Source: an uncultured Acidobacteriota bacterium (lineage in GTDB: Bacteria; Acidobacteriota; Thermoanaerobaculia; UBA5066; Gp7-AA6). Taken from it: a stretch of 64,000 nucleotides of DNA. Every line of letters begins with the position of its first letter. Position 1 is the first letter of the stretch. A program made the translations under genes and the position numbers. The notes beneath the pieces were generated by a model. It worked only from the letters and a program-made list of their open reading frames with translations. It ran no database searches and was not told the origin of the DNA. This document shows positions 25,028 to 63,404 of the stretch, piece after piece. Where the stretch lies: contig CAVXTP010000001.1 in assembly GCA_963764715.1 (NCBI GenBank), positions 11,504 through 75,503 on the forward strand. Direction: 5' to 3'.

Positions 25028-25336
25028 CTACGCGCCGGAGGCCATCCGCCGCAGCGACTCGAACGAATAGATCCCGTCGTTGTGGCCGTCGGCCCAGTCG
25101 ATCTGCAGGGCGTACGAGCCGACCCACCGGTGGGCCGCCGCCTGGATCGACAGGGGCGTGAGCGGCCGGTCCGGCCCGCGGTAGATCTTGCCGAAGAGGT
25201 CGGGCTCCCCCTTGCACATGGCGCACGGGCAGGCGCGGCGGAGCTTCTCGAGCGACAGGTAGTCCTCGCGCCCGTCGTCCCAGACGATGACGAGCTCCTG
25301 GCCTAGGACCTGGACCTGCTTCGGGACCGAGATCAC
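25028..25336 (-). CDS. DUF971-family protein (gamma-butyrobetaine hydroxylase-like N-terminal domain)
   Basis: CPCAMC motif. ATGA overlap with the stop of the first kinase. Confidence 0.55.
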   Translation of the reverse strand: MISVPKQVQVLGQELVIVWDDGREDYLSLEKLRRACPCAMCKGEPDLFGKIYRGPDRPLTPLSIQAAAHRWVGSYALQIDWADGHNDGIYSFESLRRMASGA

Positions 25337-27939: not shown

Positions 27940-27966
27940 GGAGAGCGGGGGGATTCTACCGGAGGC

Positions 27967-33128: not shown

Positions 33129-33154
33129 TAAGGCGGCAGGATTCTAACCGCGAA

Positions 33155-40871: not shown

Positions 40872-40903
40872 GTCGGGGCGATTCTACGACGGCCGCGCTT
40901 CGT

Positions 40904-43594
40904 CTAACCGGCGGCAGCAATGAGCTTCTGAAACCGAGGATTCCCGCGCAGCGGATCGAAGTTCGGGTCGATCTTCAGCCAGCCGGGCGAAAGGATGTAG
41001 GGGATCTTTAGAAGGGGCTCGAGCTGGTCGAGCGCTTTGTCGGGCTCCCCCGCCAGGATGTAGATCCGCGCGAGCTGGTGCTGCAGGAATGGGCCGGTGA
41101 ACCCGTCCTTCGCGATCGGGAGCATCGCCACGCCCTTCTGCGCCTCGGCGATCCCCTGCGCGGTGTCGCCCGCGTAGGCGAGCGCCAGACCGAGGCCCAC
41201 GCGGCGCTGCGCGTCCTCGGGGGAGGACTGCAGCTGCTCCTCGATCGCCTTCCTTGCCGCGTCGGCGTGCGCGCGCGTCTTCGCCGCGTCGCCGCGGAGG
41301 GCCCAGGCCTGCGCGAGGCAGAGGCCCCAGGTGGCGCGATCGCCGTCGAAGGCGCTCGGCGCCAGGCTCACGAGAAGGTCTCGCTGCTTCTCGTCGAGGA
41401 GCCACACGACGTCCCAGTAGGCCGCCACGTAGGCGACGAGCGCCGCGGGTTCGACCTCCCGGGGCGCCGCGGCGAGCACGCTCCTCGCTCCCGCCAGATC
41501 GGCCTCTCCGAGAAACGTCATGGCCTTGCCTTCGATCAGGCCGAGGTGCGTCGGCGCGATGACGAGCCCCCGGTCGAAGGCCTCCCGCGCCGGGGAAAAG
41601 CGACGAAGCCAGTAGTACGCGTCGCCCAGCCGGCGCAGCACGCTGACCGAGCGGGGGTCGAGCCGTTCCGCCTTCTGCAGCGTCTCGACGGCGGCGTCCC
41701 ACCGGCCGAGCGCCACATCGGCCACGGCGATCGCCGAGAGCAGGTCGGCGTTTCCGGGCGAAAGGGCCCGCGCGCGGGCGTACTGCTCGAGGGCCCGGTC
41801 GGAGTCCTTCGTCACGAGCCGTTCGTACTGGCCCATGGCGACGTAACCGTCCGGGCGATTCGGCGCGAGGCGGACGGCCCGCTCGGCGGCCTGCCGCGCG
41901 GCCTCGGCGAGCGCGGGCGTCGGCCCGCTGTTGCCGTAGAGCATGGAGTTCGCCCTCGAAACCCTCGCCCAGGCCTGCGCAAACCCGGCATCGAGCGCCA
42001 CGGCCCGCTCGTAGAAGGAGAGGGCCTGGCGCAGGCTCGGCGGGTCCTGGACACCCATGCTCCGGGAGACCTGCTCGCCCCGGAGAAACTCGTCGTACGC
42101 GGCGAGGTCCTTCGTGGGCCTTTCGTTCAACTGCTGCTGCTCGCGCGGCTGGAGCACGACGCCGAGCTCCTGCGCCACGCGCGAGGCGATGTCCGACTGC
42201 ACCTGGAACACGTTGGTCAGGGCGGCGTCGAAGGGCTGCTGCCACTTGGACGCCGGCGCCTCCGAGCCCGCCACTTCGACGAGCTCCGTCGAGACGTGCA
42301 CCCGACTCTCCGCCGCGGCCTTGTCCCAGCGCACCGTCGCGGTCAGGAGGTATCGCACGCCGAGCTCCCGGGCGATCTCCTGAGGCGTCTTCGTCGTCTT
42401 GCGGTAGGGAGTCGAGCTGCCGCGCGCGATCACCTGCAGCCCCGGCAGGAGCGTCAGCTTGCCGCGGACCTCGTCGGCGATCCCGTCGGCGAAGTACTCG
42501 TCCTCGGGCGCGCCGAGATTTTCGAACGGCAGCACGGCGAGTCGGGTCGGGGCGGCCGGAGCCGCCGCGGTGGTCTTCGCCGGCCGTTGCGGCCTCAGCA
42601 GGAGGAAGAGGCCGACGGCGGCGGCGAGCCCGATCCCGCCCCAGAGGGCGAGCCGGCCGACCGGTCTCCGGCGCCTCCGGGGCGGAGGAGGCTCGGGCGC
42701 AACGGGCCGGGGGCCGCTTCCCGCCACCGCGGCCGCCGCGGAGAGCGAGGCCTCCGAGAGCGCGAAGACGACGTCCTTGGCCGACTGAAAACGGTGGTTC
42801 GGGTTTTTCTCCAGACAGTGGCGCACGACGTGGTCGAGAGCCGGCGCGATCCCGCGACCGGACTCGGCCGGATCGGGCGGTTCGTCGCGCAGGATCGCCG
42901 TCATGGTCTCGATCGCAGAGGTCCGCCGGAAGGCCCGCTGGCCCGACAGCATCTCGTAGAGGATCGCTCCGAACGAAAAGATGTCCGAGCGGTGATCGGT
43001 TTTCGCGGCGCGCACCTGCTCCGGTGACATGTAGCCGGCCGTGCCGAGCACGACGCCGGGTTCGGTCAGGCCCGGGTCGGTGAGCGCCGGCGACGCCGAG
43101 CCCGCGGGGTCGCCGCCGACGCGCTTGGCGAGCCCGAAGTCGAGGATCTTCAAATGCCCTGCGTTGGTCACGAAAATGTTCTCGGGCTTCAGGTCCCGGT
43201 GGACGACCCCCTTCTCGTGCGCCGCGGAGAGCCCACGCGCGATCTGGAGCGCGTAGTCGACGGCCGCCGCCTCGGTGAGAGGGCCCGCCTCGAGGCGTCC
43301 GCGCAGCGTGTCGCCCTCGAGCAGCTCGGTGACGGCGTACGCGACGCCCTGCGCGCTTCCGAACTCGTGGATCGCAAGGATGTTCGGATGCGACAGGGCC
43401 GCGACGGCCTTGGCCTCGCGCTCGAACCGCGCATACGCGTCCTGGTCCAGCGCGAGGTTCCCGGGCAGCACCTTGATCGCCACCTCGCGATCGAGCGTCG
43501 TGTCGCGGGCGCGGTAGACCTCCCCCATGCCTCCGGCTCCGAGGGGCGCAAGCACCTCGTAGTGGCCGAGGAGGCTGCCCTCGGAGAGTGGCAT
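40904..43594 (-). CDS. Ser/Thr protein kinase with TM segment, TolB-N-like region and C-terminal TPR repeats
   Basis: Kinase motifs ([15 protein letters not shown]). Start taken at MPLSEGSLLGHYEV. The C-terminal half is TPR-rich rather than a propeller. Confidence 0.75.
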   Translation of the reverse strand: MPLSEGSLLGHYEVLAPLGAGGMGEVYRARDTTLDREVAIKVLPGNLALDQDAYARFEREAKAVAALSHPNILAIHEFGSAQGVAYAVTELLEGDTLRGRLEAGPLTEAAAVDYALQIARGLSAAHEKGVVHRDLKPENIFVTNAGHLKILDFGLAKRVGGDPAGSASPALTDPGLTEPGVVLGTAGYMSPEQVRAAKTDHRSDIFSFGAILYEMLSGQRAFRRTSAIETMTAILRDEPPDPAESGRGIAPALDHVVRHCLEKNPNHRFQSAKDVVFALSEASLSAAAAVAGSGPRPVAPEPPPPRRRRRPVGRLALWGGIGLAAAVGLFLLLRPQRPAKTTAAAPAAPTRLAVLPFENLGAPEDEYFADGIADEVRGKLTLLPGLQVIARGSSTPYRKTTKTPQEIARELGVRYLLTATVRWDKAAAESRVHVSTELVEVAGSEAPASKWQQPFDAALTNVFQVQSDIASRVAQELGVVLQPREQQQLNERPTKDLAAYDEFLRGEQVSRSMGVQDPPSLRQALSFYERAVALDAGFAQAWARVSRANSMLYGNSGPTPALAEAARQAAERAVRLAPNRPDGYVAMGQYERLVTKDSDRALEQYARARALSPGNADLLSAIAVADVALGRWDAAVETLQKAERLDPRSVSVLRRLGDAYYWLRRFSPAREAFDRGLVIAPTHLGLIEGKAMTFLGEADLAGARSVLAAAPREVEPAALVAYVAAYWDVVWLLDEKQRDLLVSLAPSAFDGDRATWGLCLAQAWALRGDAAKTRAHADAARKAIEEQLQSSPEDAQRRVGLGLALAYAGDTAQGIAEAQKGVAMLPIAKDGFTGPFLQHQLARIYILAGEPDKALDQLEPLLKIPYILSPGWLKIDPNFDPLRGNPRFQKLIAAAG

Positions 43595-43664
43595 CGGGCG
43601 TTGTCCGGATTCTACCCGCAGTCGTGGAATATCCTTGCCGCGCTTACTCAATCGAAAGGCCGTC

Positions 43665-45872
43665 ATGAGACCAGCGCCGACGCGTCGCCTCGCCTCGCTC
43701 ATCGCCCTTCTCGGGGCCCTTCCGCTCCTGGCCCAGACCCCGCGCGAGCTCACCGTCGACTGGATCTACGGCGAGGAAGCGACCGCGGCGGCGAGGCTTC
43801 CGAAGTTCGCCTGGACGACCGCCGACGACGTCCTCGTCCTCGATGAGCGGGCCGCTCCGCCCCGGCGGACGATCGAGCGGATCCGGGCGAAGACCGGGCA
43901 GCGCTCCGCGGCCGTCGACGCCGCCGCCGCGCTCGCGAGCCTCCGGGCGATCTCTTCGGAGAACGCCCCGGCGTCCCTCGCCTGGCCGGAGGCGTTCGAT
44001 CCCGCGGGAGCCACCGGGATCTACGTCCTGGGAGACGACCTCTACGCCCTCGACCTGGCGGCGTCGCGCTTCTCGCGCCTGACCACGACGGACGCGAAGG
44101 AGACCCTGCCTCGATTCTCGCCGGACGGCCGGAAGCTCGCGTTCGTCCGAAGCAATGACCTCTACGTGATGGACCTCGCCACGAAGCGGGAGTCGCGGCT
44201 CACCTCCGACGGAAGCGACACGATCTTGAACGGCACGCTCTCCTGGGTCTACTGGGAAGAAATCTTCGACCGCGGCGATACCGGTTACTGGTGGTCGCCC
44301 GACTCGAAGTCCATCGCCTTTCTGCGGACCGACGAATCCGGCGTCGACGTCACGACGTTCACCGACTTCGCTCCGGCGGTGCCGCGCGAGATTCGCCAGC
44401 GCTACCCGCGAACGGGCCGGCCGAACCCGGCCGTCCGACTCGCAATCACGGACCTCGCCGGGGCGAAGACGGCCTGGATGGAGCCGTCCGGAGCCGCCTA
44501 CGAGTACCTCCTCGGCGTGGACTGGCTGCCCGACAGCTCCGCCGTCGTCGTCCAGACGATGAACCGGGCCCAGACGAAGCTCGACGTCTGGCGATTCGAT
44601 CGCGCCGCCGGGAGAGCGACCGTGGTCCTGAGCGACAGCGATCCCGCCCTCGTGTACCAGAAGGAGATCCAGTTCGCGGACGGCGGGAGAACGTGGATCG
44701 TCTCGTTCGAGAAGAACGGCTACACGCACCTGTACCGCTACGGCGCCGACGGCGTTCGGAAGAACGCGATCACGCAGGGCGACTGGTCGGTCCGCGGAGG
44801 CGGCGGGTACGACGCGCCCCAGGGTTCGACCTTCATCGACGACGTGAGCGGCGACATCTATTTCTCGTCGACCGAGAAATCGCCTCTCGAATCCCACATC
44901 TACCGGATCCGGTCCGACGGCACCGGAAAGGTCCGCATCACGAAGGACGACGGAACGCACAAGGTCACGTTCTCTCCGGACCGCCGCTACTTCGTGGATG
45001 CGTACTCGAACCGGAACACCCTGCCGTCGCTGGCGCTGTACGCCGCTTCCGGCGAGCGGCTGGCGACGATCTGGGAAACCGGGCCGGACTTCCTCGCGCC
45101 CTACGGTCTGACCGCCCGCGAGCTCCTCACGATCCCGGCGCCCGACGGCTTCCCCATCCCGGCGAGCATCCTGAAGCCGGCGGATTTCGACCCCGCCAGG
45201 AAGTATCCCGTCCTCATCCACGTCTACGGAGGGCCGGGCTCTCCGATCGTCCTGGACCGCTGGGGCCGCGACGATCTCTTCGAGCACCTTCTCGTCCAGC
45301 AGGGCTACGTCGTGGCGTCCTTCGATCCGCGCAGCGCCGCGGGTCGGAGCAAGGCGCTGGAGGACCCCGTCGTCGGCAAGATGATGAGCGACTCCGAGCT
45401 CGCCGACCTCCAGGCCGCCGTGAAGTGGCTCAAGGCCCAGTCCTGGGCGGACCCGTCGCGTTTCGGCATCTGGGGCTGGAGCGGCGGGGGCTCCTACACG
45501 CTCCTTGCGATGACCAGGACGTCGGAGTTCAAGGCCGGCATCGCCGGCGCGCCCGTGACCGACTGGCACTTCTACGACACGAAGTTCGGCGAGGCCTACA
45601 TGCAGACCGCGGAGACGAACCCGGAGGGCTACGCTTACACGTCCTTCGTGAAGCGCGCGAAGGACCTCTCGGGGCGGCTGCTCCTGGTCTTCGGGACCTA
45701 CGACGACAACGTCCACCCGCAGAACGAGTGGGCCTTCGCAGACGCCCTGATCGCGGCGGGCAAGCCCTTCGACATCATGGTCTACCCGATGCGCAAGCAC
45801 GGCTTCGTCGACAAGCCGGCGATCCGCCACCGGGCCGCGAAGATGCTGGAGTTCTGGAAGCTCTACCTTTGA
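43665..45872 (+). CDS. S9-family prolyl oligopeptidase / dipeptidyl-peptidase IV-like
   Basis: Signal peptide, beta-propeller region, and a C-terminal alpha/beta hydrolase with GWSGGG nucleophile elbow. Confidence 0.7.
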   Translation: MRPAPTRRLASLIALLGALPLLAQTPRELTVDWIYGEEATAAARLPKFAWTTADDVLVLDERAAPPRRTIERIRAKTGQRSAAVDAAAALASLRAISSENAPASLAWPEAFDPAGATGIYVLGDDLYALDLAASRFSRLTTTDAKETLPRFSPDGRKLAFVRSNDLYVMDLATKRESRLTSDGSDTILNGTLSWVYWEEIFDRGDTGYWWSPDSKSIAFLRTDESGVDVTTFTDFAPAVPREIRQRYPRTGRPNPAVRLAITDLAGAKTAWMEPSGAAYEYLLGVDWLPDSSAVVVQTMNRAQTKLDVWRFDRAAGRATVVLSDSDPALVYQKEIQFADGGRTWIVSFEKNGYTHLYRYGADGVRKNAITQGDWSVRGGGGYDAPQGSTFIDDVSGDIYFSSTEKSPLESHIYRIRSDGTGKVRITKDDGTHKVTFSPDRRYFVDAYSNRNTLPSLALYAASGERLATIWETGPDFLAPYGLTARELLTIPAPDGFPIPASILKPADFDPARKYPVLIHVYGGPGSPIVLDRWGRDDLFEHLLVQQGYVVASFDPRSAAGRSKALEDPVVGKMMSDSELADLQAAVKWLKAQSWADPSRFGIWGWSGGGSYTLLAMTRTSEFKAGIAGAPVTDWHFYDTKFGEAYMQTAETNPEGYAYTSFVKRAKDLSGRLLLVFGTYDDNVHPQNEWAFADALIAAGKPFDIMVYPMRKHGFVDKPAIRHRAAKMLEFWKLYL

Positions 45873-53654: not shown

Positions 53655-53744
53655 GGAGAGGTGCTGGAGTGGTTGATCAGGCCGGTCTCGAAAACCGGTA
53701 GGCCCGAAAGGGTCTCGTGGGTTCAAATCCCACCCTCTCCGCCA
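53655..53744 (+). tRNA. tRNA-Ser (anticodon CGA)
   Basis: Manual cloverleaf: acceptor GGAGAGG/CCTCTCC, anticodon loop CTCGAAA, long variable arm, CCA encoded. Confidence 0.85.
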
Positions 53745-54084
53745 CTACTACTGCCTCGCGACAGTCGTGGGTTCACCCGACCACCAGCGGCAGACCCCCG
53801 GCAGTAGGGAGCCGTCCACCAGAGATCGACCCCCGATCTTAGGCAACGCTGGCCGAAGGCCAGCGGTAACCCACGCTGCGCGAAGCGCAGCGGTAAATCC
53901 CACCCTCTCCGCCACTAATGTTGCCTCGAGACAGTCGTGGGTTCGCCCGACCACCAGAGGCAGACCCCCGGCAGCAGGGAGCCGTCCACCAGAGATCGAC
54001 CCCCGATCTTAGGCAACGCTGGCCGAAGGCCAGCGGTAACCCACGCTGCGCGAAGCGCAGCGGTAAATCCCACCCTCTCCGCCA
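53745..54084 (+). repeat. two tandem ~170 nt units, each a tRNA-Ser 3' fragment (T-arm to CCA) whose T-loop is interrupted by a ~135 nt insert beginning CCGACCACCAG(C/A)GGCAGACCCCCGGCAG
   Basis: Units at 53745-53913 and 53914-54084. Each ends with AAATCCCACCCTCTCCGCCA, identical to the 3' end of tRNA-Ser. Confidence 0.75.
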
Positions 54085-54120
54085 TTATTGCTCCTCGAGA
54101 GAGTCGTGGGGTCGGCGCCC

Positions 54121-56838: not shown

Positions 56839-56913
56839 GGCCCATTCGTCTAACGGTTAGGACGCGGCCCTCTCAAGGCCGAAATACGGGTTCGATTCCC
56901 GTATGGGCTACCA
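56839..56913 (+). tRNA. tRNA-Glu (anticodon CTC)
   Basis: Manual cloverleaf: acceptor GGCCCAT/ATGGGCT, D-loop TTCGTCTAACGG, anticodon loop CTCTCAA, T-arm ACGGGTTCGATTCCCGT, CCA encoded. Confidence 0.8.
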
Positions 56914-57083
56914 GCTCCCCGCCGCTTCGTTATTAGCCCGCCGCGTCCTCCGGACGCGACCCTCTCAAGGCGGCTTCCTTTGAGCGCGCCCTTCCGGGCG
57001 CGACACGGGTTCGATTAGCGCCGGGCGGACCCGGCGCTTGTCGCGGCGCTTTCGCGCCGCTCGGTGCCCCGTATGGGCTACCA
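56914..57083 (+). repeat. degenerate tRNA-Glu-derived repeat unit, copy 1; ends with an exact duplicate of the tRNA-Glu 3' end CCCGTATGGGCTACCA
   Basis: Contains GGACGCGACCCTCTCAAGGCGG (tRNA-Glu anticodon-arm-like), then a GC hairpin insert, then ACGGGTTCGATT (the T-arm), then the 3'-end duplicate at 57068-57083. Confidence 0.75.
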
Positions 57084-57182
57084 GATCTCCCCGCGCTGTC
57101 AGCTCCCGCCGACGGGGGTCAACGCTGCTTTCCTGCAGCGTCACGTCGGCACAGGATTGCAGCGTTGACCCTGTTCACCTGT

Positions 57183-57716
57183 TTACCGGTCCTGCTCCTG
57201 CGGGACGCGAACGATGCGCGAGACGTCGTAACCCTGCTCGCCGACCAGCGCGAGGAGGCGCGCGTAGTCGGCCTCTGGAATGCGCGGAGTGCGCGCCATG
57301 ATCCAGACGTGATCGCGCTTGTTGCGGCTGATGATGGTGGTGGAGTAGTCCTCGTCCAGGTACGTGATCAGGTACTCCGCCTCGATCGGCCACACGAACT
57401 GCATGCCCCAGGTGGCGTTGGTGCGCTTGTCGCGCACGTACCCCCTGGGCGTGTAGCGCTTCGGTTTGCCGTCGAAGCCGCCCTTGCGGAAGGTGAAGGT
57501 CGTCTCCACGACGCCGTCCGGGCGCAGGCGGTACGACTCGATGGCGGCGTAGGCGCCCTTCTCGAGCGAGGTCGGGATGCTGGCGATGACGTACCAGTCC
57601 CCCATGAACCTCGCGAGATCCACGTGGTCCACGGTCTTCAGCGGCCGTAGCGCGGAGGTCGAGCATCCCGTCGCGGCGACGAGGAGGCCCGCCAGGAGGA
57701 AGCGGGCGCCGGCCAC
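57183..57716 (-). CDS. blc: bacterial lipocalin (Blc-like) lipoprotein
   Basis: Lipobox LVAATGC. Lipocalin SCR1 motif FMGDWYVIA. Confidence 0.7.
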   Translation of the reverse strand: MAGARFLLAGLLVAATGCSTSALRPLKTVDHVDLARFMGDWYVIASIPTSLEKGAYAAIESYRLRPDGVVETTFTFRKGGFDGKPKRYTPRGYVRDKRTNATWGMQFVWPIEAEYLITYLDEDYSTTIISRNKRDHVWIMARTPRIPEADYARLLALVGEQGYDVSRIVRVPQEQDR

Positions 57717-57720
57717 GATT

Positions 57721-58383
57721 TCAGAGCAGTTCGTAGAGGAGGCGGTGGCCGCCTTCGAGCTGCGACTCCAGGCCGAGCCAGCCTCCGCCGGGCGCGTACC
57801 AGAGGTCGATCGCCATGCCCGGCGCCTTCAGCCGGTATCGTTCCGCCCGGGTCACCGCGCCGCGCACCGGGAACGTCTCCTCGCCCAGCGGTTGCACCTC
57901 GACGGCCACGAGTTCGCCCGTCTGGCTGTTCAGCAGCGACGAGCGCTCGAGGAACTCCGGGTTCCAGTAGGCGAAAGAGCTGACGCAGGACGGCCCTGCT
58001 CGCCGCGCGCCCCGGCTTTCGACGAGGAATTGATTCCCGGCCGAGGCCCCGCGCACTTCGTACGTTCTGCCGTTGTCGTCGGTGCGCGACTGGATGCTGG
58101 CCAGACAGCGATCGTCCCAGACCTCCACGGCCTCGTGCCGGTACTCGTAGGCCGTGACGAAGAGGAGCTTGACCTTGAGCGCGGCCTCGCTCCGAAGCAC
58201 TTTCCGCGAGCCCTCGGTCCGGAGAACGAAGTCGTGACGCCCCACCTCGCGCCCGTCGAGGAGAACGCGGAAGCGCCATTGCTGCGTCGGCTCCGCGTCC
58301 GCCCGGGCGGCCCGCGCCCCGTTCGGAGTGATCGCGCCGAGCACGGCCAGCGCGAGTGCGGCCAGAACGTTCCGCGACTTCAT
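57721..58383 (-). CDS. hypothetical secreted protein
   Basis: Signal peptide MKSRNVLAALALAVLGA. Start chosen inside a longer ORF. Confidence 0.4.
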   Translation of the reverse strand: MKSRNVLAALALAVLGAITPNGARAARADAEPTQQWRFRVLLDGREVGRHDFVLRTEGSRKVLRSEAALKVKLLFVTAYEYRHEAVEVWDDRCLASIQSRTDDNGRTYEVRGASAGNQFLVESRGARRAGPSCVSSFAYWNPEFLERSSLLNSQTGELVAVEVQPLGEETFPVRGAVTRAERYRLKAPGMAIDLWYAPGGGWLGLESQLEGGHRLLYELL

Positions 58384-58708
58384 GCGAGCCCCCTCCTGAC
58401 TGCCAGGAGCCGGCATTCTCCTCGACCTGGGGCTCGATGCGTGCAGGTTGTCCAGGTCGGAAAGGCCGGCGCCGCCGAGCCGTGGGGCTACCCGATCTCC
58501 CGCCCTTCCCGCCGCCCGGAGCGCCGGCGCCCGGGGCCGAGAAAGCTTTCGCCCACCAGGACCGTGACGCCGTCCGAGCGGAACGAGAAGGTGTGCCCCG
58601 CCGGGTTGTCGTCTCCGGCCGGAGGACGAATGCGGACCGGGGTGCCACCTACGCCGGCCGCCGAAGGCGTTCGATTCCCGCGAAGAACGTCGAAAGGTTC
58701 CAGGTCGC

Positions 58709-58846
58709 GCCCGTATGGGCGACCAACTCCAGCCGGCTTCGCGAGGGACGGCTGCGTCCCGCCGCAGCCCTCTCAAGGCGGCTCACTCTCAGGCGTCGCT
58801 CCGCGACGCGCGCGCCCCTTCTCGCGCGACACGGGGTCGTTTGGCG
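58709..58846 (+). repeat. tRNA-Glu-derived repeat unit, copy 2 (most diverged)
   Basis: GCGCCCGTATGGGCGACCA ... CAGCCCTCTCAAGGCGGCT ... GCGCGACACGGGGTCGTTTGGCG. An upstream 3'-end-like 25-mer lies at 58479-58503. Confidence 0.65.
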
Positions 58847-58877
58847 TTGCCGCCGAGCATCGGCGTCGTGAACGCGG

Positions 58878-60236
58878 TCAGAACTCGCGTGGCAGGCCCA
58901 TTTTTCTCAGGCGATCGTCAAAGCGCGGATCATCGCGCAGGCCATCCCAATCCGGTGCGACCGCCAGGTGAACCAGTGCCGGGTCGCGCTGTGCGATGGC
59001 CTGATCGAGGCAGTCGAACGCTTCATCGAGCCGGCCTGCTCCCCCGTAGATTCTGGCGCGGAAGAACGGCATCTTGAGCAACACGTCGAAGTCCAGCTGC
59101 GGGTTCGAGATTTGATCCACCCAGAATTGGCTCAGTCCGGAGAGGCCGGCCGTCGCGTACGCGTGCTGCGCTTCCGCGGTGACCTGCTTCACTACCGCCA
59201 GCCACTCTTCGGGTAAGCCGAACTCGATGGCATTGCGGACGGCCAGGGCCGCGAATCGATCGAGGTCGACGATCTTCAAATAGACGTAGCCAATGAATTG
59301 GCACGCCTGCGCATGCTTCGGGTTGACGTCAAGCGCTCGCCGGGCCCAGCCAAGCGCGTCGTCGTACTTCCGCTGGTGCCAATACGAGATGGCGATCTGC
59401 ACCAGAACGCCGGGCGATCGCGGATCGCGCGCGAGCGCCTGTTGCTTGCATCGCAGCCCGTCGTCGAGCCGCCCGAGCGCTTCCTGGAGCGACCCATACT
59501 GCAGGAGCGCCTCGGTGTGATCCGGATTGATTTCGAGCGCGCGTTGCAGGCTGCGCTCCGCCGCCGTCCAGTCCCACTCGCTGAGAAAAAGGACGGTGCC
59601 AAGGGCAACCTGCGCGTCCGCCGAGGCGCTGTCCATCGCCAGCGCGCGTAAGGCAGACGCCTTCGCCTCTGCAAACGCCTCCTGGTGCGGCACCCCGTGA
59701 GACGCTGCCAGCACGCACTGTGCGCGCGCCAGGCCGGCGTGCGCCGGCGCGTAGGTCGGATCGATCTCGATCGCGGAACGAAAGGCTTCCACGGCGGCCG
59801 GCAGTTCGAAAAACGAGTCGGACAACAGGTGAGACCGGCCGCGGCCGACAAGCTCGTAAAGTTCGACGGGTCGCGCCACGGCGCTCGATACGAATGGCCT
59901 CTCGTCCTCCGAATCAACCCTGACTGCAGCGATGAAGCGGTACCCGGACCCCGCCACCGTTTCGATATAGATCGGCCGGTGGGCGTCCTCGTGAAGCGCC
60001 TTGCGCAGCGCCGACATGTGAACCGTGAGACCGCCTTCTTCGACGAATGACTCGGGCCAGATGCGCTTCAGCAATTCGTCCTTCGTGACCAGGCGGCCCC
60101 GCTGTCGTACCAACGCAACCAGCACATCGTAGGCCTTCGGTGACACGCGGACGACTTCCGCGCCGCGCAGGAGCCGCCGCTCTCGCACGTCGAGCGTGAA
60201 TTCGTCGAAATGAAATACCTCACTGCTGGTGGCCAT
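58878..60236 (-). CDS. CadC/OmpR-type winged-helix transcriptional regulator with TPR repeats
   Basis: N-terminal DNA-binding winged helix (FDEFTLDVRERRLLRG...YRF), followed by TPR-like helices. Confidence 0.6.
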   Translation of the reverse strand: MATSSEVFHFDEFTLDVRERRLLRGAEVVRVSPKAYDVLVALVRQRGRLVTKDELLKRIWPESFVEEGGLTVHMSALRKALHEDAHRPIYIETVAGSGYRFIAAVRVDSEDERPFVSSAVARPVELYELVGRGRSHLLSDSFFELPAAVEAFRSAIEIDPTYAPAHAGLARAQCVLAASHGVPHQEAFAEAKASALRALAMDSASADAQVALGTVLFLSEWDWTAAERSLQRALEINPDHTEALLQYGSLQEALGRLDDGLRCKQQALARDPRSPGVLVQIAISYWHQRKYDDALGWARRALDVNPKHAQACQFIGYVYLKIVDLDRFAALAVRNAIEFGLPEEWLAVVKQVTAEAQHAYATAGLSGLSQFWVDQISNPQLDFDVLLKMPFFRARIYGGAGRLDEAFDCLDQAIAQRDPALVHLAVAPDWDGLRDDPRFDDRLRKMGLPREF

Positions 60237-60321
60237 CAGATTTCGGCGAATCTTAGCAAGTCCTTAAGGACGCGTCACGGCCGGGACAGCTGTCATGAAC
60301 GCGCTTTCAAAGGAGAAGAGA

Positions 60322-60855
60322 ATGATCACCCGATCGTTGGTCGCCTTCATTCTGAGCTGCGGATTCACGGCACTCTCACTCGCGCAAGCTCCACCAGAGC
60401 CCCCGAAGCCGGGCCCCGAGCAGAAGAAGTTGGAGTACTTCCTTGGCACTTGGAGGGTGGAAGGCGAGGTTAAACCGAACGACTACATGCCGGCCGGTAA
60501 GAGTGTCATCACCGCGACATATGCATTGGGTCCGGGGGGATTCTCTGTCGAGTCCCGAGGTGAAGGGGAAAATTACCCGACGACCCACGGAATCACGGCC
60601 TACGACAGCCAGGCGAAGCTCTACACGACATTTTATGCGAGCAGTGCCGGACTCGTGGGTGGCGGCACAGCAACGGTTGACGGAAATACCTGGACGTGGA
60701 TGCTTGAAGACAAGTGGCTTGGCCAAGCATTCAGAGGAAGAACGACAGTCACCGTCAAATCGGCGTCTCAGTACACGGCCAAGTATGAATATCTCGACCC
60801 GAACGGCAGTTATGTAACGCTCGTAGAAAGCACCGCCACCAAAGTCGCGCCTTAG
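60322..60855 (+). CDS. DUF1579-like secreted protein
   Basis: AAGGAG SD. Signal peptide. The local GC content is clearly lower than the surroundings. Confidence 0.5.
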   Translation: MITRSLVAFILSCGFTALSLAQAPPEPPKPGPEQKKLEYFLGTWRVEGEVKPNDYMPAGKSVITATYALGPGGFSVESRGEGENYPTTHGITAYDSQAKLYTTFYASSAGLVGGGTATVDGNTWTWMLEDKWLGQAFRGRTTVTVKSASQYTAKYEYLDPNGSYVTLVESTATKVAP

Positions 60856-61107
60856 AGACGCAGACACCAGCCGTTCGAAGTGGAGCAGAACCTGGTCCTC
60901 GCCCTAGAAGCGAAGCGGGCTCGCCTCCCAGATCCGGACTTGGCGTCTTATCCGAACCAGCTTCTCGATGCCTGCAGCGAGGTCTGGCAGGGGTTCACGG
61001 CGATCCTGGAACACGGCTTTCCAGGTCAACCTTCAGTCTTCCCAGCTGCGTGAGCCAGTCTTGGATCTGGTTTCAGCTGGGGCCAGATCAACCCCACTCC
61101 AAGTCTC

Positions 61108-61225
61108 ACGCCGCGTCCTGCGGATGCAGCCCTCTCAAGATGGCTGCCTTTGAGCGCGCCCTTTCGGGCGCGACACGGGTGAAATTGGCGCCGGGGGGTA
61201 CCCGGCGCCTTGTGTCTGCTCTTCG
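61108..61225 (+). repeat. tRNA-Glu-derived repeat unit, copy 3
   Basis: GCAGCCCTCTCAAGATGGCTGCCTTTGAGCGCGCCCTTTCGGGCGCGACACGGGTGAAATTGGCGCCGGGG. Confidence 0.7.
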
Positions 61226-61257
61226 CGCGCTCGCGCGCTCTCCCCGGAGGGGGACCC

Positions 61258-61722
61258 CTACTTCACCGTGAACGTCTTCGAAGGCCCGGGTTTCCCGTCC
61301 ACCGTGGTTTCGACCTTGTAGCTGCCCTTCGGCCAGCCCGACGGCTTCTGGATCGAGAACTCCGTCGTCGCCGGACCCGTGGGCGCGATGGTCCTCGAGT
61401 CTTCCTTGACCACCTGTCCATCGCCGAAGGTCCACTTCACCGCGATCACCGAAGCGGCCGCCGAGCCGTCCGTCGATACGGCGGCAAAGATCGTGTCTTT
61501 CGGCGAAAACGTGTCGGTCGGCGCCTGGACCTTCTTGTCGGGTCCGAGGGACTTCCCGAGCGAGAGATCCGTGACGGTGACGGCGGGGGCCGGGACGGCC
61601 GTCGGCACGACCGGGACGGGGGTGGGCATCGGGGCCGGGGCCTCTGCCTTCTTGCATGCGCTCAGAGCGACCGCCGAAGCCAGGACTGCCGCCACGAGGG
61701 CGGCGTGAGTACGTGTCGTCAT
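61258..61722 (-). CDS. hypothetical lipoprotein
   Basis: Lipobox LSAC. Pro-rich linker. Confidence 0.45.
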   Translation of the reverse strand: MTTRTHAALVAAVLASAVALSACKKAEAPAPMPTPVPVVPTAVPAPAVTVTDLSLGKSLGPDKKVQAPTDTFSPKDTIFAAVSTDGSAAASVIAVKWTFGDGQVVKEDSRTIAPTGPATTEFSIQKPSGWPKGSYKVETTVDGKPGPSKTFTVK

Positions 61723-61756
61723 CTGCTCTCCTTCTGCCTGGGAACGGCGCTGCCGC

Positions 61757-62023
61757 TCATTCGGGAATCCGGAGCTTCCAGCCCGGCTGGATGAGGTCCG
61801 GATTTTTCACGATGTCCCTGTTCGCTTCGAAAATCCGCTTCCACGAATTCGCGTTGCCGTAGAACTTCTTGGAAATCTTCGAGAGACTGTCTCCGCTCTG
61901 GACGACGTACGTTCGGGAGGTCTCGGCGGCCACTCCCGCCTTGTTCCCCGAGGGCGATGGCGCCGTCGACGAGCTTCCGGATTCGACGTCCGAGAAGTCC
62001 GGCTTGTTGGGGTCATCCGTCAT
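61757..62023 (-). CDS. LysM-domain protein
   Basis: C-terminal LysM motif (YVVQSGDSLSKISKKFYG...W..I...N). Confidence 0.6.
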   Translation of the reverse strand: MTDDPNKPDFSDVESGSSSTAPSPSGNKAGVAAETSRTYVVQSGDSLSKISKKFYGNANSWKRIFEANRDIVKNPDLIQPGWKLRIPE

Positions 62024-62069
62024 TCCATCCTCCTTCTCGACCCGTTTGCCGGGTCGGCAGTGTTCGTTC

Positions 62070-62318
62070 TCACGCCGGCTTGGCCGTGAACTTCCGGTAG
62101 ATCCAGGTGACGGCGATCGCGCCGATGACCGCCACGATGATCGTATAAATCAGGCCGCCTTCCGCCTTGAAGCCGAACAGGCTCATCAGGAAGCCGCCCG
62201 CCAGAGCTCCCACGAGGCCGAGGATGATGTCCATGAGAACTCCACCCCCGCCTCCCATGATCTTGCCGGTGAGCCATCCCGCAATCAGGCCCACGATCAG
62301 CCACCAGATGATGCCCAT
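62070..62318 (-). CDS. GlsB/YeaQ/YmgE-family transglycosylase-associated membrane protein
   Basis: 82 aa with Gly-rich TM helices (GIIWWLIVGLIAGWL). Confidence 0.7.
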   Translation of the reverse strand: MGIIWWLIVGLIAGWLTGKIMGGGGGVLMDIILGLVGALAGGFLMSLFGFKAEGGLIYTIIVAVIGAIAVTWIYRKFTAKPA

Positions 62319-62321
62319 GGC

Positions 62322-62879
62322 TCATCTCCTCGCCTGAGAAATCTTGGACATGAGGAGCGCCAGTGCGCCGGCGCCGATCGCCTTGACGAGCGTCGGGTGT
62401 TGCGCGTAAAAGCCCGCGGCCTTGTCCATGATTGACGGATCTCTTGTCGCCGCCTGCCGGGCGATCGTCTGGACCGCCTCGGGGCTCACATCCTGAGCCT
62501 GCTGCGGCGTCACGCTCTGGCCGGCGACCGCCCCGGCAAGGCCTCCGAGTCCCAGGGAACCCAGGATCTGGGAGCCGGCGGGACCGAGCGATGCGAGCAG
62601 CTGGTTGAGAAGTCCCGCTTTCTGATCGGGGTTGGACTGGCCGAAGAGCCCGGACACCATCTGCTCGAACGGCGGTGTTTGATCGGACTTGAAGGCGTGA
62701 CCGAGGCCGGCCGCGAGGCTCCCCTGCGGAACGGCGGAGGCCACTTGATCGTAGGCCGCGTGCACGTCGGAGTCCGATGCACTGCCACGGGTGAACTGAT
62801 CGACGATGCTGCCGAGGTTATCCATAAGACCCATGGCGTCCTCCTTACGATTCGATGATTCGTCGACATCGAGAAACAC
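62322..62879 (-). CDS. hypothetical protein (DUF937-like, Gly/Ala-rich)
   Basis: ORF adjacent to the upstream gene. Start uncertain; an alternative is MGLMDNL. Confidence 0.35.
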   Translation of the reverse strand: MFLDVDESSNRKEDAMGLMDNLGSIVDQFTRGSASDSDVHAAYDQVASAVPQGSLAAGLGHAFKSDQTPPFEQMVSGLFGQSNPDQKAGLLNQLLASLGPAGSQILGSLGLGGLAGAVAGQSVTPQQAQDVSPEAVQTIARQAATRDPSIMDKAAGFYAQHPTLVKAIGAGALALLMSKISQARR

Positions 62880-63037
62880 GCCGGCGAAACAGCGACAGTG
62901 GCGTTCGCCGTCCGCGACCTCGAGGAACCGAGTCTATAACCGGTTCCTAACCCCACCTCGAACGTGCCGGGGGGCAGGACCGGGCCGCCGTCCGCCGCAA
63001 GATCCTTTAAGAATCTTTCGACGTGGTTCCATCTCGG

Positions 63038-63165
63038 GCCCGTATGAGCTACTTGCTCTCTGCCGCTTCGTTAGTTACCCGCCGCGTCCTGCGGTCACGA
63101 CCCTCTCAAGGCGAATCCCTTTGAGCGCGCCCTTTCGGGCTCGATACGGGTTCGATTCCGGCATG
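63038..63165 (+). repeat. tRNA-Glu-derived repeat unit, copy 4 (begins with the 3'-end-like CCCGTATGAGCTAC)
   Basis: CCCGTATGAGCTAC...CGCTTCGTTAGTTACCCGCCGCGTCCTGCGG..ACGACCCTCTCAAGGCGAATCCCTTTGAGCGCGCCCTTTCGGGCTCGATACGGGTTCGATTCCGG. Confidence 0.7.
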
Positions 63166-63404
63166 TGTTCCGAAAGCGGCTTCAAAGAGATAATGGTCGT
63201 GTGAAGCACTCGTCGCCCAACCGCCGACCTCAGTCGGCTGCCGCAAAAGCTCGTGTCAAGGCCCTGAGTCGCGGCGAGGCGCCGGTCGTGCGCGACCCGG
63301 AGGAGGCTCGAGGGCTCCCCTTCGTATCCCCGGCCGAACGCCAGGCGGCGTTTGCCATGGCGGCCAGGAAACGGGCAGCCGAAGAGAAGCGCCGGAAGAA
63401 GTAG
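63165..63404 (+). CDS. hypothetical small basic protein
   Basis: ORF only. Its 5' end overlaps the repeat unit, so the real start is probably downstream. Confidence 0.2.
   Translation: MFRKRLQRDNGRVKHSSPNRRPQSAAAKARVKALSRGEAPVVRDPEEARGLPFVSPAERQAAFAMAARKRAAEEKRRKK

Follow-up and report, generated by a model that had tools for sequence, protein, structure and literature searches.

A tRNA-Glu-linked repeat array as a likely insertion hotspot for small, recombinase-less gene cassettes in a soil acidobacterium

Introduction

Several described systems accumulate DNA at one site or next to tRNA genes. Xer-dependent modules, such as IMEX elements and the pdif modules of Acinetobacter, are small and recombinase-less, accumulate at a single site and rely on a recombinase whose gene lies elsewhere. 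CIME-type elements undergo tandem accretion at tRNA genes, and are in this respect akin to tycheposon islands. In E. coli K-12 the tyrT-tyrV locus carries a 178-nt repeat in three copies, which overlaps the 3' end of tyrV. A close match to this pattern is present in the DNA studied here, a stretch of 64,000 nt (the window), in which tRNA-Ser(CGA) is accompanied by two copies of a 170-nt tandem repeat and no cassettes. The tycheposon islands of Prochlorococcus consist of tandem integrations separated by partial tRNAs, together with degraded elements, and tycheposons encode their own integrase and replication genes (bioRxiv 10.1101/2020.12.28.424599).

Here we describe the tRNA-Glu(CTC) locus of the same window, from a soil acidobacterium. 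We consider it somewhat more probable than not (roughly 0.55) that this locus is a tRNA-linked repeat array which acts as a hotspot for the insertion of small gene cassettes lacking a recombinase.

Results

Organisation of the locus

The features of the locus, with the evidence for each, are as follows.

56839-56913, + strand: functional tRNA-Glu(CTC) with encoded CCA, anchor of the array (ARAGORN; Rfam tRNA, 64.3 bits)
56914-57083, + strand: spacer and unit U1 (covariance-model match 56936-57083, 84.9 bits)
57084-58493: cassette 1 (Pfam; repeat listing; sequence)
57116-57171: long hairpin, cassette 1
57183-57716, - strand: lipocalin Blc, cassette 1 (Pfam)
57721-58383, - strand: DUF6134, cassette 1 (Pfam)
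58494-58725, + strand: gene-less cassette or unit remnant (repeats, motif matches)
58726-58846, + strand: spacer and unit U2 (nhmmer match 58752-58842, E = 1e-8; alignment)
58847-61085: cassette 3 (Pfam; GC content)
58878-60236, - strand: winged-helix (Trans_reg_C) and TPR regulator, cassette 3 (Pfam)
60295-60855, + strand: DUF1579, GC 0.56, cassette 3 (Pfam; GC content)
61086-61233, + strand: spacer and unit U3 (covariance-model match 61106-61203, 66.9 bits)
61234-63054: cassette 4 (Pfam)
61258-61722, - strand: lipoprotein, cassette 4 (Pfam)
61757-62023, - strand: LysM, cassette 4 (Pfam)
62070-62318, - strand: Transgly_assoc/YeaQ, cassette 4 (Pfam)
62322-62834, - strand: 170-aa protein, cassette 4 (no Pfam match)
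63055-63173, + strand: spacer and terminal unit U4 (covariance-model match 63077-63173, 68.9 bits)
63201-63404, + strand: small basic ORF, conserved right boundary of the array (no Pfam family)
from 63418, - strand: PEP-mutase family gene

An earlier note on this DNA had placed a tRNA-Glu(CTC) gene upstream of four same-strand units derived from it; ARAGORN and Rfam both call the gene, and profile and covariance-model searches recovered all four units 3' of it. The anticodon-loop motif CCCTCTCAAG occurs five times in the 64 kb, always on the + strand and between 56868 and 63110, against a chance expectation of 0.12, and none of 100 shuffles reached five copies. Allowing up to three mismatches, the window holds three copies of the GC hairpin GAGCGCGCCCTTYCGGGCGCGAC (0.01 expected) and four of the tRNA 3' end CCCGTATGGGCTACCA (0.17 expected). 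Decayed pieces of the array that had been overlooked lie at 58447-58493, 58494-58725 and 61069-61085. Four insertions split the array, each terminating in a mimic of the T arm and 3' end and followed by the next spacer and unit. The units do delimit accessory modules, as had been proposed. Pfam upheld Blc and placed its "secreted" neighbour as DUF6134, while the label "DUF937-like" was not confirmed because the 170-aa ORF has no Pfam match. The GC content of the cassette genes is 0.56-0.68, against a window average of 0.69.

The four units differ in their state of preservation. U1 runs, 5' to 3', from hairpin P1 through CCCTCTCAAGG and the GC hairpin P3 to the T-stem 5' strand and T loop; the loop holds a 51-nt double-hairpin insert (57017-57067), the end (57068-57083) is an exact copy of the tRNA 3' end, and the RNA fold z-score is -4.6. 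A last unit with a T-loop insert was also found at loci L034, L011, L012, L023, L029, L004 and L006 of relatives. U2 is the most diverged, has an extra hairpin and is broken off within the T loop. U3 is preserved as far as the T loop, including the first, terminator-like hairpin of the insert in that loop (61187-61209), beyond which it is interrupted. The U4 region (63055-63173) is 86% identical to 56898-57016; its 3' end is degenerate (CCGGCATGTGTTCC) and adjoins the conserved right flank. Terminal units homologous to U4 are present in L004 and L016, and sequence homologous to the 63201-63404 ORF region trails the last unit in L004, L016, L029, L034 and L035. The 3'-end copies at 58710 and 63039, formerly assigned to U2 and U4, belong instead to the gene modules before them, whose right ends they form.

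A unit family derived from tRNA-Glu

The family to which the units belong is present at 36 loci in 36 species-level MAGs, almost all of them Thermoanaerobaculia/Acidobacteriota, and nearly all of these loci adjoin tRNA-Glu(CTC). Typically the units form a tandem array of 3-6 near-identical copies with a period of 116-119 nt, placed right after, or sometimes before, the tRNA gene and always on its strand. That such lineage-wide arrays normally hold no genes contradicts the view of the units as traces of serial integrations.

Complete units end in a T arm, 3' acceptor strand and CCA copied from the tRNA of their own genome: of the 36 canonical complete units (those fitting one sequence pattern), 30 have a final 26 nt identical to the resident tRNA, also in genomes whose tRNA differs. 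The 3' strand of P1 is the D-stem/anticodon-stem sequence of the tRNA, which together with the shared 3' portion bears out the earlier derivation of the units from tRNA-Glu. Upstream-type copies retain the whole tRNA 5' half and the sequence upstream of it, probably the tRNA promoter. The unit of about 95 nt is a remodelled ancestral duplicate of the tRNA-Glu gene, in which the D loop has collapsed to hairpin P1, the anticodon stem is broken and a GC hairpin occupies the variable-loop position, while the T arm, 3' acceptor strand and CCA have been kept.

A conserved structure had been argued from stems around the CCCTCTCAAG loop that seemed to covary. Across 72 distinct units from 37 loci no such covariation is present; conservation is seen in P1, which lies 5' of the motif, and in P3 and the T arm, and not in a stem flanking the anticodon-like loop. 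The compensatory changes in P3 and the strict conservation of CCCTCTCAAGGCG are more than an att site requires, and hint at an additional RNA or protein-binding role.

Cassettes and their ends

The gene modules have been inserted into the array, in most cases at a unit's T loop or 3' end. They measure 0.2-2.3 kb and share a conserved end motif, GGTTCCA-N7-CCCGTAkGGGCTACCA, which imitates the T arm and tRNA 3' end. In its fuller form (GGAAy-N9-11-GGTTCCA-N7-CCCGTA...) the motif is distinct from the unit and common to unrelated cargo; about ten cassettes carry it at the right end, with cargo as different as MarC, a methyltransferase-like gene and a 353-aa ORF, among others. A second end type, conserved over about 200 nt, likewise occurs with differing cargo, and some cassettes have inverted copies of the site at both ends. 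In the window, cassette 1 has a degenerate right end, GGTTGTCCAGGTCGG...CCGTGGGGCTACCC (58447-58493), and both of its flanks read ...GGGCTACC(A/C), then the boundary, then GATCTCCC. In the gene-less remnant, GGCGTTCGATTCCCG (58666-58680) resembles a T arm, and GGTTCCAGGTCGCG-CCCGTATGGGCGACCA (58696-58725) forms the right end. The right end of cassette 3 is decayed (GGTTTCAGCTGGGGCCA, 61069-61085), and that of cassette 4 is GGTTCCATCTCGGG-CCCGTATGAGCTAC (63025-63052). Left junctions vary, some following ACCA and others lying within the T-loop insert.

Cassette content among relatives

In order to compare the locus we used 8-20 kb of sequence from each relative. The closest (L004/L040) is about 92% identical to the window. 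In L040 the slot that holds the lipoprotein-LysM-YeaQ-170-aa block of the window (61234-63064) is occupied by ArsR and AHSA1 genes, homology on the U3 side ending at 61233; the closest relative also lacks the 392 nt (58472-58863) that span U2 and the gene-less remnant stretch. With the same boundaries, the ArsR-AHSA1 cassette was found in two further species. Over the two genes the three species are 98-99% identical, and in their core flanks they show 86-92% identity to the window. The left boundary of the cassette follows ACCA and its right boundary ...GGTTCCATGyAAsG-CCCGTAyGGGCTACCA, and on both sides identity falls exactly at the 16-nt tRNA 3' end without extending into the flanking units. 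As the pair is also 92-96% identical in unrelated contexts without a tRNA, this near-identity is less proof of cassette transfer than it first appeared. The winged-helix regulator gene of cassette 3 recurs at about 90% nucleotide identity in L010 and L024, inverted and with another partner gene.

Cassette content differs among close relatives, and other species carry some of the same cassettes. The variation in module content that the earlier note had anticipated is seen at the locus in the ArsR-AHSA1 swap, the 392-nt absence and the new partner of the regulator. Modules without a repeat between them, which the note held would speak against it, occur at one junction, where Blc-DUF6134 abuts wHTH-DUF1579 in L004/L040; the other junctions keep their units.

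Search for a recombinase

No recombinase was found among the recombinase-sized ORFs of the window, where module genes and 18 other ORFs were judged by Pfam and the rest by N-terminal sequence, in agreement with the earlier reading. The note had advised looking for one beyond the window; the genes called in 20.5 kb of L040, within 10 kb of the locus in the closest relative, include none. The cassette ORFs checked in relatives included no recombinase, no integrase fragment was seen in roughly 12 cassette-bearing loci, and viral contigs held neither unit nor cassette end. Since no recombinase was identified, the enzyme and exchange point proposed below are inferred from junction sequences alone.

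Discussion

Serial site-specific integration at a tRNA predicts modules with a direct repeat of the tRNA 3' end on either side, and this part of the earlier proposal stands, although the units are not leftovers of four separate integrations. We suggest that a cassette is gained or lost when its own mimic undergoes site-specific recombination with the acceptor and T-stem 3' strand of a unit, with exchange probably within about CCCGTA. At the right junction the 7-nt loop expansion would remain with the cassette; at the left junction, in two genomes, a polymorphic base 3' of CCCGTA appears to move with it. The enzyme, most likely a tyrosine recombinase, would be encoded elsewhere in the genome. 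The copied tRNA 3' ends may act as spare attachment sites, thereby leaving the essential tRNA undisrupted, and this reaction, or else unequal crossing-over, might lengthen the gene-less arrays. Within the window, the left repeat of cassettes 3 and 4 has apparently been lost, and both are probably fixed in place. The units are probably co-transcribed with the tRNA, because the last unit has a terminator-like hairpin. If cassettes do move in this way, the junction expected in their circular form is GGTTCCA-N7-CCCGTA(G)GGGCTACCA-cassette start. Some observations fit less well: left junctions are not uniform, and site-specific exchange therefore needs later deletions; the T loop is 7 nt in the mimic and 12-14 nt in the unit, which is awkward for strand exchange inside it; and one directional att site does not predict the opposite orientations of the regulator gene.

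It is conceivable, though unlikely, that no dedicated recombinase exists and that the units are ordinary tandem tRNA duplicates, kept uniform by unequal crossing-over and gene conversion, through which cassettes are exchanged by RecA, the units acting as portable homology arms, for instance after uptake of foreign DNA. The near-identity of tandem units and their concerted evolution with the tRNA would follow, as would the varying left junctions and the failure to find an integrase in the window, L040 or the checked cassette ORFs; every cassette is flanked by units of about 100-170 nt at 80-95% identity, and plain tandem repeats without cassettes exist at the tRNA-Ser of the window and at E. 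coli tyrT. Against this, the cassettes bear their own conserved end motif, which is distinct from the unit and common to unrelated cargo, the 16-nt tRNA 3' end exactly bounds the identity of the ArsR-AHSA1 cassette on either side, and the right end sometimes offers just about 30 nt of homology, short for efficient RecA exchange. We regard as very improbable that the modules are decayed integrase-carrying islands or prophages which integrated successively at tRNA-Glu and, after deletion of the integrases and most of their other DNA, left only cargo and att scars. Tycheposon islands, with their partial tRNAs and degraded elements, are exactly of this kind, and both the flanking direct repeats and the decayed left junctions of cassettes 3 and 4 agree with it. 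The cassettes are, however, uniformly tiny, several species share one of them intact, ends included, and the roughly 12 loci yielded no integrase fragment and the viral contigs neither unit nor cassette end. Moreover, arrays of 118-nt units that hold no genes cannot be integration scars, because their repeat also takes in sequence from outside the tRNA, on the wrong side of the att core, and because the units within one array are near-identical.

It seems distinctly doubtful, judging from sequence, that the units serve mainly as RNA genes or processing elements, RtT-like mimics of tRNA-Glu beside which the gene insertions are incidental. Such units would be co-transcribed with tRNA-Glu and released by tRNA-processing enzymes, and could serve in regulation or as a decoy or sponge for a tRNA-Glu-binding protein or nuclease. 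In favour of this, the last unit has a terminator-like hairpin in its T loop, and upstream-type copies keep the probable promoter of the tRNA. The family persists in species with flanks down to 72-92% identity; hardly any variation is seen in CCCTCTCAAGGCG, the T arm and ACCA; P3 shows CG to GC and P1 CG to TA compensatory changes in either direction; some units fold cloverleaf-like, closed by AGCCC/GGGCU, and ARAGORN calls a few as odd tRNAs. E. coli offers a precedent in rttR, inside the tyrT repeats. On the other hand, the units have no Rfam match and mostly insignificant fold z-scores, RNAalifold yields P3 and the T arm alone with a covariation term near zero, outer P1 pairs are often C.A on the + strand with no G.U versus A.C asymmetry, most units lack the acceptor 5' strand, and the cassette end motif is left unexplained. 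An RNA role is compatible with a cassette hotspot.

Comparison with known systems

Like the RtT (rttR) repeats of tyrT-tyrV, the units lie head-to-tail 3' of a tRNA, each with a tRNA 3' segment and CCA, and a small basic ORF lies in or beside the repeats in both systems. The two share no sequence or Rfam similarity, and the tRNA-Glu unit retains far more of its tRNA, with the anticodon loop, the whole T arm and, inside P1, the D-stem. Furthermore, its family is known from 36 species-level genomes, nearly all belonging to a single class, and has cassettes between or within units, whereas none are annotated at tyrT of E. coli K-12.

The array cannot be called an integron, or "integron-like" as had been suggested: it has no intI, attI/Pc or attC-type site, gene orientations are mixed, and the cassettes include regulator genes. 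It does share with integrons an array of small recombinase-less cassettes, each with its own imperfect-palindrome site, where the sites vary around a common core, one end type accompanies different cargo, and exchange occurs between species; the cassette site, however, mimics a tRNA T arm and acceptor and not attC. Inverted site copies at the ends of some cassettes recall Xer-dependent modules, but the site lies in tRNA-like sequence and not at a replication terminus or on a plasmid, and read by eye it has no convincing 11-6-11 dif-like symmetry.

With tycheposon islands the locus has in common a tRNA-adjacent hotspot, partial tRNA copies, cargo that varies among close relatives and decayed remnants. 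It differs in that the cassettes are only 0.2-2.3 kb and that they and the examined 10-kb flanks are without a recombinase, and in that the site is embedded in a conserved tRNA-derived unit which also makes gene-less arrays. The tRNA-Glu array is an unusual form of an already known type of tRNA-linked gene-exchange hotspot.

Tandem units derived from tRNA-Glu

The repeats that had been reported 3' of tRNA-Glu(CTC) (56839-56913, called by both ARAGORN and Rfam) proved to be real, with motif counts far above chance and matches to both a profile and a covariance model. The anticodon-loop decamer CCCTCTCAAG was observed five times in the 64-kb window against an expected 0.12, a count reached in none of 100 shuffles; the GC hairpin motif occurred three times (expected 0.01) and the tRNA 3' end CCCGTATGGGCTACCA four times at ≤3 mismatches (expected 0.17). 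All copies of these three motifs lie on the + strand between 56868 and 63161. A repeat search found 86% identity between 56898-57016 and 63039-63157, so the repeated block begins at the tRNA 3' end, crosses a spacer and reaches into the unit. Profile and covariance-model searches placed four units and found no unit-like sequence elsewhere in the window.

Units in the window (profile and covariance-model searches)
56936-57083, + strand, U1
58752-58842, + strand, U2
61106-61203, + strand, U3
63077-63173, + strand, U4

Among the gene calls made from the sequence alone, Pfam bore out the lipocalin, Trans_reg_C with TPR, DUF1579, LysM and Transgly_assoc; the "secreted protein" is DUF6134, and the "DUF937-like" gene had no family match. 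Between U1 and the 3' end of blc we observed a long, near-perfect hairpin (57116-57171; 20-nt arms, 90% complementary, 16-nt loop), which is conserved in the closest relative (L004) and is probably a bidirectional terminator. A weak Rfam match to mir-7147 at 57114-57171 is spurious and corresponds to this hairpin. The right edge of the array is marked by a small, very basic ORF (~68 aa) that comes consistently after the last unit and for which no Pfam family was found.

Small basic ORF after the last unit
Window, 63201-63404
L004, 7800-8000
L016, 4125-4442
L034, 6483-6713
L035, 6095-6300

In another part of the window (25333-43753) lie five or six tandem paralogues of ~860 aa, all starting MTLSAGxKLGPYEI. 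They resemble Ser/Thr kinases that bear a repeat domain at the C-terminus, and a frameshift may affect at least one of them (about 33155-35700).

Distribution, anatomy and origin of the units

The family was surveyed by one exact-pattern scan with one genome per species. Matches were obtained at 36 loci, all in MAGs of Acidobacteriota/Thermoanaerobaculia except one short contig binned as Fimbriimonadaceae, and a canonical tRNA-Glu(CTC) adjoins nearly all of them. That exception (L002; DATJYD010000683.1, 3.8 kb) has the same unit matches and scores as the Thermoanaerobaculia locus L022 and is therefore probably mis-binned. The usual state in relatives is a tandem array directly 3' of tRNA-Glu. 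In L034, for example, four near-identical 119-nt units come after the tRNA, then a fifth unit that has an insert in its T loop, and similar arrays were seen in L001, L016, L018, L023, L024, L030 and L035. Every non-tRNA match to the covariance model (79/79) is on the tRNA strand. Head-to-tail units that each contain the tRNA 3' end occur in L001, L016, L023, L034 and others and, in the window, in the tRNA with U1 and in a second set of repeats at tRNA-Ser.

Parts of a complete unit, 5' to 3'
Part 1 (5' end): spacer of ~25 nt
Part 2: hairpin P1, GCCGCGTCC-nnn-GGACGCrGC, whose 3' strand is the tRNA D-stem 3' strand plus the anticodon-stem 5' strand
Part 3: invariant CCCTCTCAAGGCG
Part 4: weak helix P2 (CTCAAGG/CCTTnGAG)
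Part 5: one or two GC hairpins, P3, at the variable-loop position
Part 6 (3' end): the tRNA's own T arm, 3' acceptor strand and ACCA

Some loci additionally hold "upstream-type" copies 5' of the canonical tRNA-Glu. These retain the tRNA upstream sequence CTGTGCTAaCTTT, probably its promoter, together with the entire 5' half of the tRNA; they share the variable-region insertion, have hairpin insertions at position 26/27 and/or in the variable loop, and usually have no CCA. They look like less-decayed duplicates of the tRNA gene and could be expressed.

Upstream-type units
L003, 165-251
L008, 7825-7947
L012, 4011-4123
L006, 217-327
L032, 30-125
L033, 6238-6332
L020, 1315-1383
L007, 7325-7370

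The anatomy of the unit and the existence of upstream-type copies together indicate that the family descends from a duplicated tRNA-Glu gene. We rejected the idea that the units are functional tRNAs or tandem tRNA genes: the anticodon stem is broken (GGCG for GGCC/GGCT) and most units have no acceptor 5' strand. ARAGORN and Rfam called only the canonical gene in the window, and across the loci the units drew no more than a few odd calls from ARAGORN. The last 26 nt are those of the resident tRNA in 30 of 36 canonical complete units, as defined by a single sequence pattern, and most of the other six differ from it only at the last few bases. The identity holds also in genomes with G or TT at the tRNA's variable positions, a pattern that is the signature of concerted evolution between units and resident tRNA.

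Cassette ends and junctions

Each module in the window leads to a conserved right end, directly followed by the next spacer and unit. The modules are cassette 1 (Blc-DUF6134), a gene-less remnant, cassette 3 (wHTH regulator and DUF1579) and cassette 4 (lipoprotein, LysM, YeaQ and a 170-aa protein).

Right ends in the window
58696-58725, right end of the remnant, GGTTCCAGGTCGCG-CCCGTATGGGCGACCA
63025-63052, right end of cassette 4, GGTTCCATCTCGGG-CCCGTATGAGCTAC
58447-58493 and 61069-61085, decayed right ends

The end motif has the architecture (C)AGGAAy-N9-11-tGGTTCCA-N7-CCCGTAkGGGCTACCA, and it closes cassettes with unrelated cargo in L001, L004, L034, L035 and three metagenome contigs. Right ends are not whole diverged units, as nhmmer similarity is confined to ~30 nt, from the T loop to CCA, with the loop expanded by 5 nt. 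A second type of end, in which ~200 nt are shared, is common to cassettes carrying different cargo, namely DinB_2 (L019) and hydrolase plus wHTH (L010, L024).

The left junctions are heterogeneous. The break in U2 and U3 falls in the T loop or the T-loop insert and a module follows, so that cassettes 3 and 4 sit inside units; cassette 1 and an ArsR+AHSA1 cassette of relatives start right after the ACCA of a unit. The 16-nt CCCGTAkGGGCTACCA is found at both ends of cassette 1, the remnant, the ArsR+AHSA1 cassette and a MarC cassette; of the two copies, cassettes 3 and 4 keep the right one only. The left repeat of L034 and L035 reads CCCGTAGGGG, which differs from the CCCGTATGGG of the tRNA and units of both genomes; the left copy thus travels with the cassette. 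The 7-nt loop expansion is specific to the cassette and remains at the right junction. Taking these two observations together, we infer that any strand exchange would occur within about CCCGTA.

Cassettes hold one to four genes in mixed orientations, some with regulators. In L019, L035 and apparently L043, an inverted copy of the T arm/acceptor at the cassette start is paired with a direct copy at the end, and such inverted sites could drive cassette inversion.

Inverted copies of the tRNA-Glu T arm/acceptor
L019, 5477-5496
L035, ~1860-1879
L043, ~70 nt past the cassette end

Cassette turnover between relatives

Module content at the tRNA-Glu locus varies among relatives. The closest relative (L004/L040, ~92% identity) holds the same tRNA, Blc-DUF6134 and wHTH-DUF1579 as the window; it has no counterpart of 58472-58863 (392 nt, the remnant plus U2), and the slot that contains lipoprotein-LysM-YeaQ-170aa in the window (61234-63064) is occupied by ArsR+AHSA1 in L040 (9562-11133). 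Cargo also differs at the locus in L001, L010, L016, L019, L034 and L035, and cassettes of relatives additionally carry MarC, DUF1254, an ECF sigma factor, DinB_2 and HXXEE. The GC content of the cassette genes in the window ranges from 0.56 to 0.68 against 0.69 for the whole window.

The two genes of the ArsR+AHSA1 cassette are 98-99% identical among L004, L034 and L035; in their core flanks, the three genomes reach only 86-92% identity to the window. The boundaries of the cassette are precise, with ACCA marking the left one and the end motif the right one; its non-coding ends are less conserved, the L035 copy having extra insertions near the right end. The wHTH gene is likewise present in L010 and L024 at ~90% nucleotide identity, next to another partner gene, and L024 is only ~80% identical in its core flank; this wHTH-TPR gene is inverted between the window/L004 and L010/L024.

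The ArsR(HTH_20)+AHSA1/SRPBCC pair was also observed at 92-96% nucleotide identity over ~0.9 kb in unrelated contexts with neither tRNA nor units, and its protein has 7792 related clusters in metagenomes at 90% identity or more.

ArsR+AHSA1 pair
L045, 9623-10511, no tRNA
L046, 9642-10530, no tRNA
L047, 9623-10518, no tRNA
L034, 3800-4680

The pair is either unusually conserved or mobile on its own. Because it is unusually conserved everywhere, near-identity by itself supports cassette mobility only weakly; the argument for such putative mobility is carried by the shared non-coding ends and the precise boundaries. The protein was rejected as a lead to an integrase-bearing parent element, the pair being ubiquitous and its contexts unrelated.

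Search for a recombinase

The absence of an integrase from the window held up: none was found among the Pfam-checked module genes, flanking genes (ABC_tran and ABC2_membrane_3 upstream of tRNA-Glu) and ten recombinase-sized ORFs of unclear identity, and the remaining window genes were judged from their sequences to be ordinary chromosomal genes. The region corresponding to that past 64 kb was read in L040 alone, where precomputed Pfam annotation covers every called gene in the 20.5 kb surrounding the array and none is a recombinase. Over the 8-20 kb searched per relative, there was none among the Pfam-checked cassette ORFs, and inspection by eye of wider ORF surveys revealed no integrase. A metagenome scan for the cassette end returned three contigs only, of the same architecture, in which a six-frame survey without Pfam check gave no recombinase-like ORF. 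A viral origin was rejected, since the unit and cassette-end patterns are absent from IMG/VR; matches there to the tRNA 3' end are phage tRNA-Glu(TTC) gene arrays only and are irrelevant.

Unit structure and possible RNA role

We aligned 72 distinct units to the covariance model. Three pairs of P3 have compensatory CG↔GC changes (56/10, 64/2, 37/6) and P1 shows CG↔TA (28/9) at one pair, its outer pairs often being C.A. Since the T arm hardly varies and the 5' strand of P2 is invariant, neither can show covariation. RNAalifold recovered P3 and the T arm alone, with a covariation term near zero. The stem around CCCTCTCAAG that had been described as covarying was inconsistent across the 72 units. 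Among single-sequence folds, U1 was significant (z = -4.6) and an L001 unit marginal (z = -2.6; P1 plus a cloverleaf-like body closed by AGCCC/GGGCU); the other units tested folded no better than shuffled sequence.

The structural changes seen imply that the hairpins are maintained, and they may act as RNA, single-stranded DNA or protein-binding palindromes; a comparison of G.T and A.C mismatches revealed no asymmetry that tells the strands apart. The first hairpin of the T-loop insert has an intrinsic-terminator-like score (61187-61209); U1 has it too, as does the last unit in many arrays, a placement that would fit co-transcription of tRNA and array ending in the last unit. No sigma-70-like promoter was detected in the spacers. 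In the window and five relatives the units gave no Rfam match at gathering score or at E≤10, the RtT model included. An RNA function would be compatible with site-specific or with homologous recombination.

Repeats at tRNA-Ser

A second tRNA-linked tandem repeat follows tRNA-Ser(CGA) (53655-53744) at 53725-54115; its two 170-nt units are 96% identical to each other, and a third is partial. Each unit ends in the last ~20 nt of the tRNA (AAATCCCACCCTCTCCGCCA) and contains GTCGTGGGTTCA, after which come ~125 nt of GC hairpins. Among relatives the repeats are variable: the unit measures 109 nt in L019 and 257 nt in L006, and L001, L003 and L029 have none. No repeats were found at tRNA-Arg(ACG).

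Interpretation

Serial site-specific insertion at tRNA-derived sites is likely, as the earlier note had proposed; its term "integron-like" holds by analogy only. The copied tRNA-Glu 3' ends would be the sites at which small, recombinase-less cassettes insert and exchange, which is in part shown and in part inferred, and a recombinase acting from elsewhere in the genome would be the simplest mechanism. The main rival is that homologous recombination between units exchanges the cassettes. In its fullest form, the reading of site-specific insertion is that Thermoanaerobaculia possess a dedicated integron-like capture system, whose site is the tRNA-Glu T-arm/acceptor mimic. The cassettes' variable mimic would take the role of attC, the unit array would provide renewable docking sites and might also furnish an RNA or arm-site cofactor, and a recombinase encoded elsewhere would shuffle cassettes between species. 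The similar repeats at tRNA-Ser would then point to a broader principle in which tRNA-linked repeats serve for docking. We give this full version a probability of roughly one in four.

Throughout the lineage, remodelled copies of the tRNA stand in a row next to the functional gene, and the cassettes at these copies are very small and recombinase-less, carry regulators and stress and envelope proteins, vary in close relatives and recur in other species. If a recombinase acting in trans were confirmed, integrons would be joined by a second cassette platform of independent origin, operating in abundant, largely uncultured soil Acidobacteriota, and it would offer a functional rationale for the long-unexplained tyrT/RtT-type tRNA-linked repeats. 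Should the arrays be only recombination-prone pseudogenes, they would still be a clear, mappable case of tRNA-derived repeats organising accessory gene turnover.

Comparison with known systems

tRNA genes are classic landing sites of mobile DNA, where the element normally brings an integrase and must rebuild the tRNA. The locus shares with tRNA-targeting islands the tRNA 3' direct repeats and the presence/absence variation, but no integrase of its own was found by an att site in the window's modules, in L040 or in the cassette ORFs surveyed in relatives. In tycheposon islands, partial tRNAs lie between successive integrations (bioRxiv 10.1101/2020.12.28.424599). Cassette accretion at the tRNA-Glu copies resembles this build-up of integrative elements next to tRNAs, except that the cassettes bring no integrase and that their site lies within a conserved unit.

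The array is not an integron, as neither intI nor attI/Pc was found at its end, in line with the lack of a recombinase in the Pfam-checked ORFs of the window and of L040. Integron cassettes comprise an ORF, usually promoterless, and attC in one orientation, whereas here orientations are mixed and the end motif is a T-arm/acceptor mimic. Xer-dependent modules (IMEX/pdif) have 28-bp XerC/XerD sites at their boundaries. Inspection by eye showed no convincing 11-6-11 symmetry in the T-arm/acceptor sequence. A CRISPR-like array was considered and rejected. We found no literature description specific to this tRNA-Glu array.

The units can be shown to be a tRNA-linked repeat family of the kind present at E. 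coli tyrT. In the tyrT reference sequence, which we checked, a 178-nt unit containing the tRNA 3' end is present in three repeats, with rttR and tpr annotated within; its protamine-like tpr ORF recalls the basic ORF at the edge of the array, possibly by coincidence. The tRNA-Glu units differ in having no match to the Rfam RtT model. Both arrays consist of head-to-tail units directly 3' of a tRNA, each with the tRNA 3' end, and this link to tyrT-type repeats of unexplained function stands, with the conserved tRNA-derived docking array and its micro-cassettes without a recombinase gene, among the notable features of the locus.
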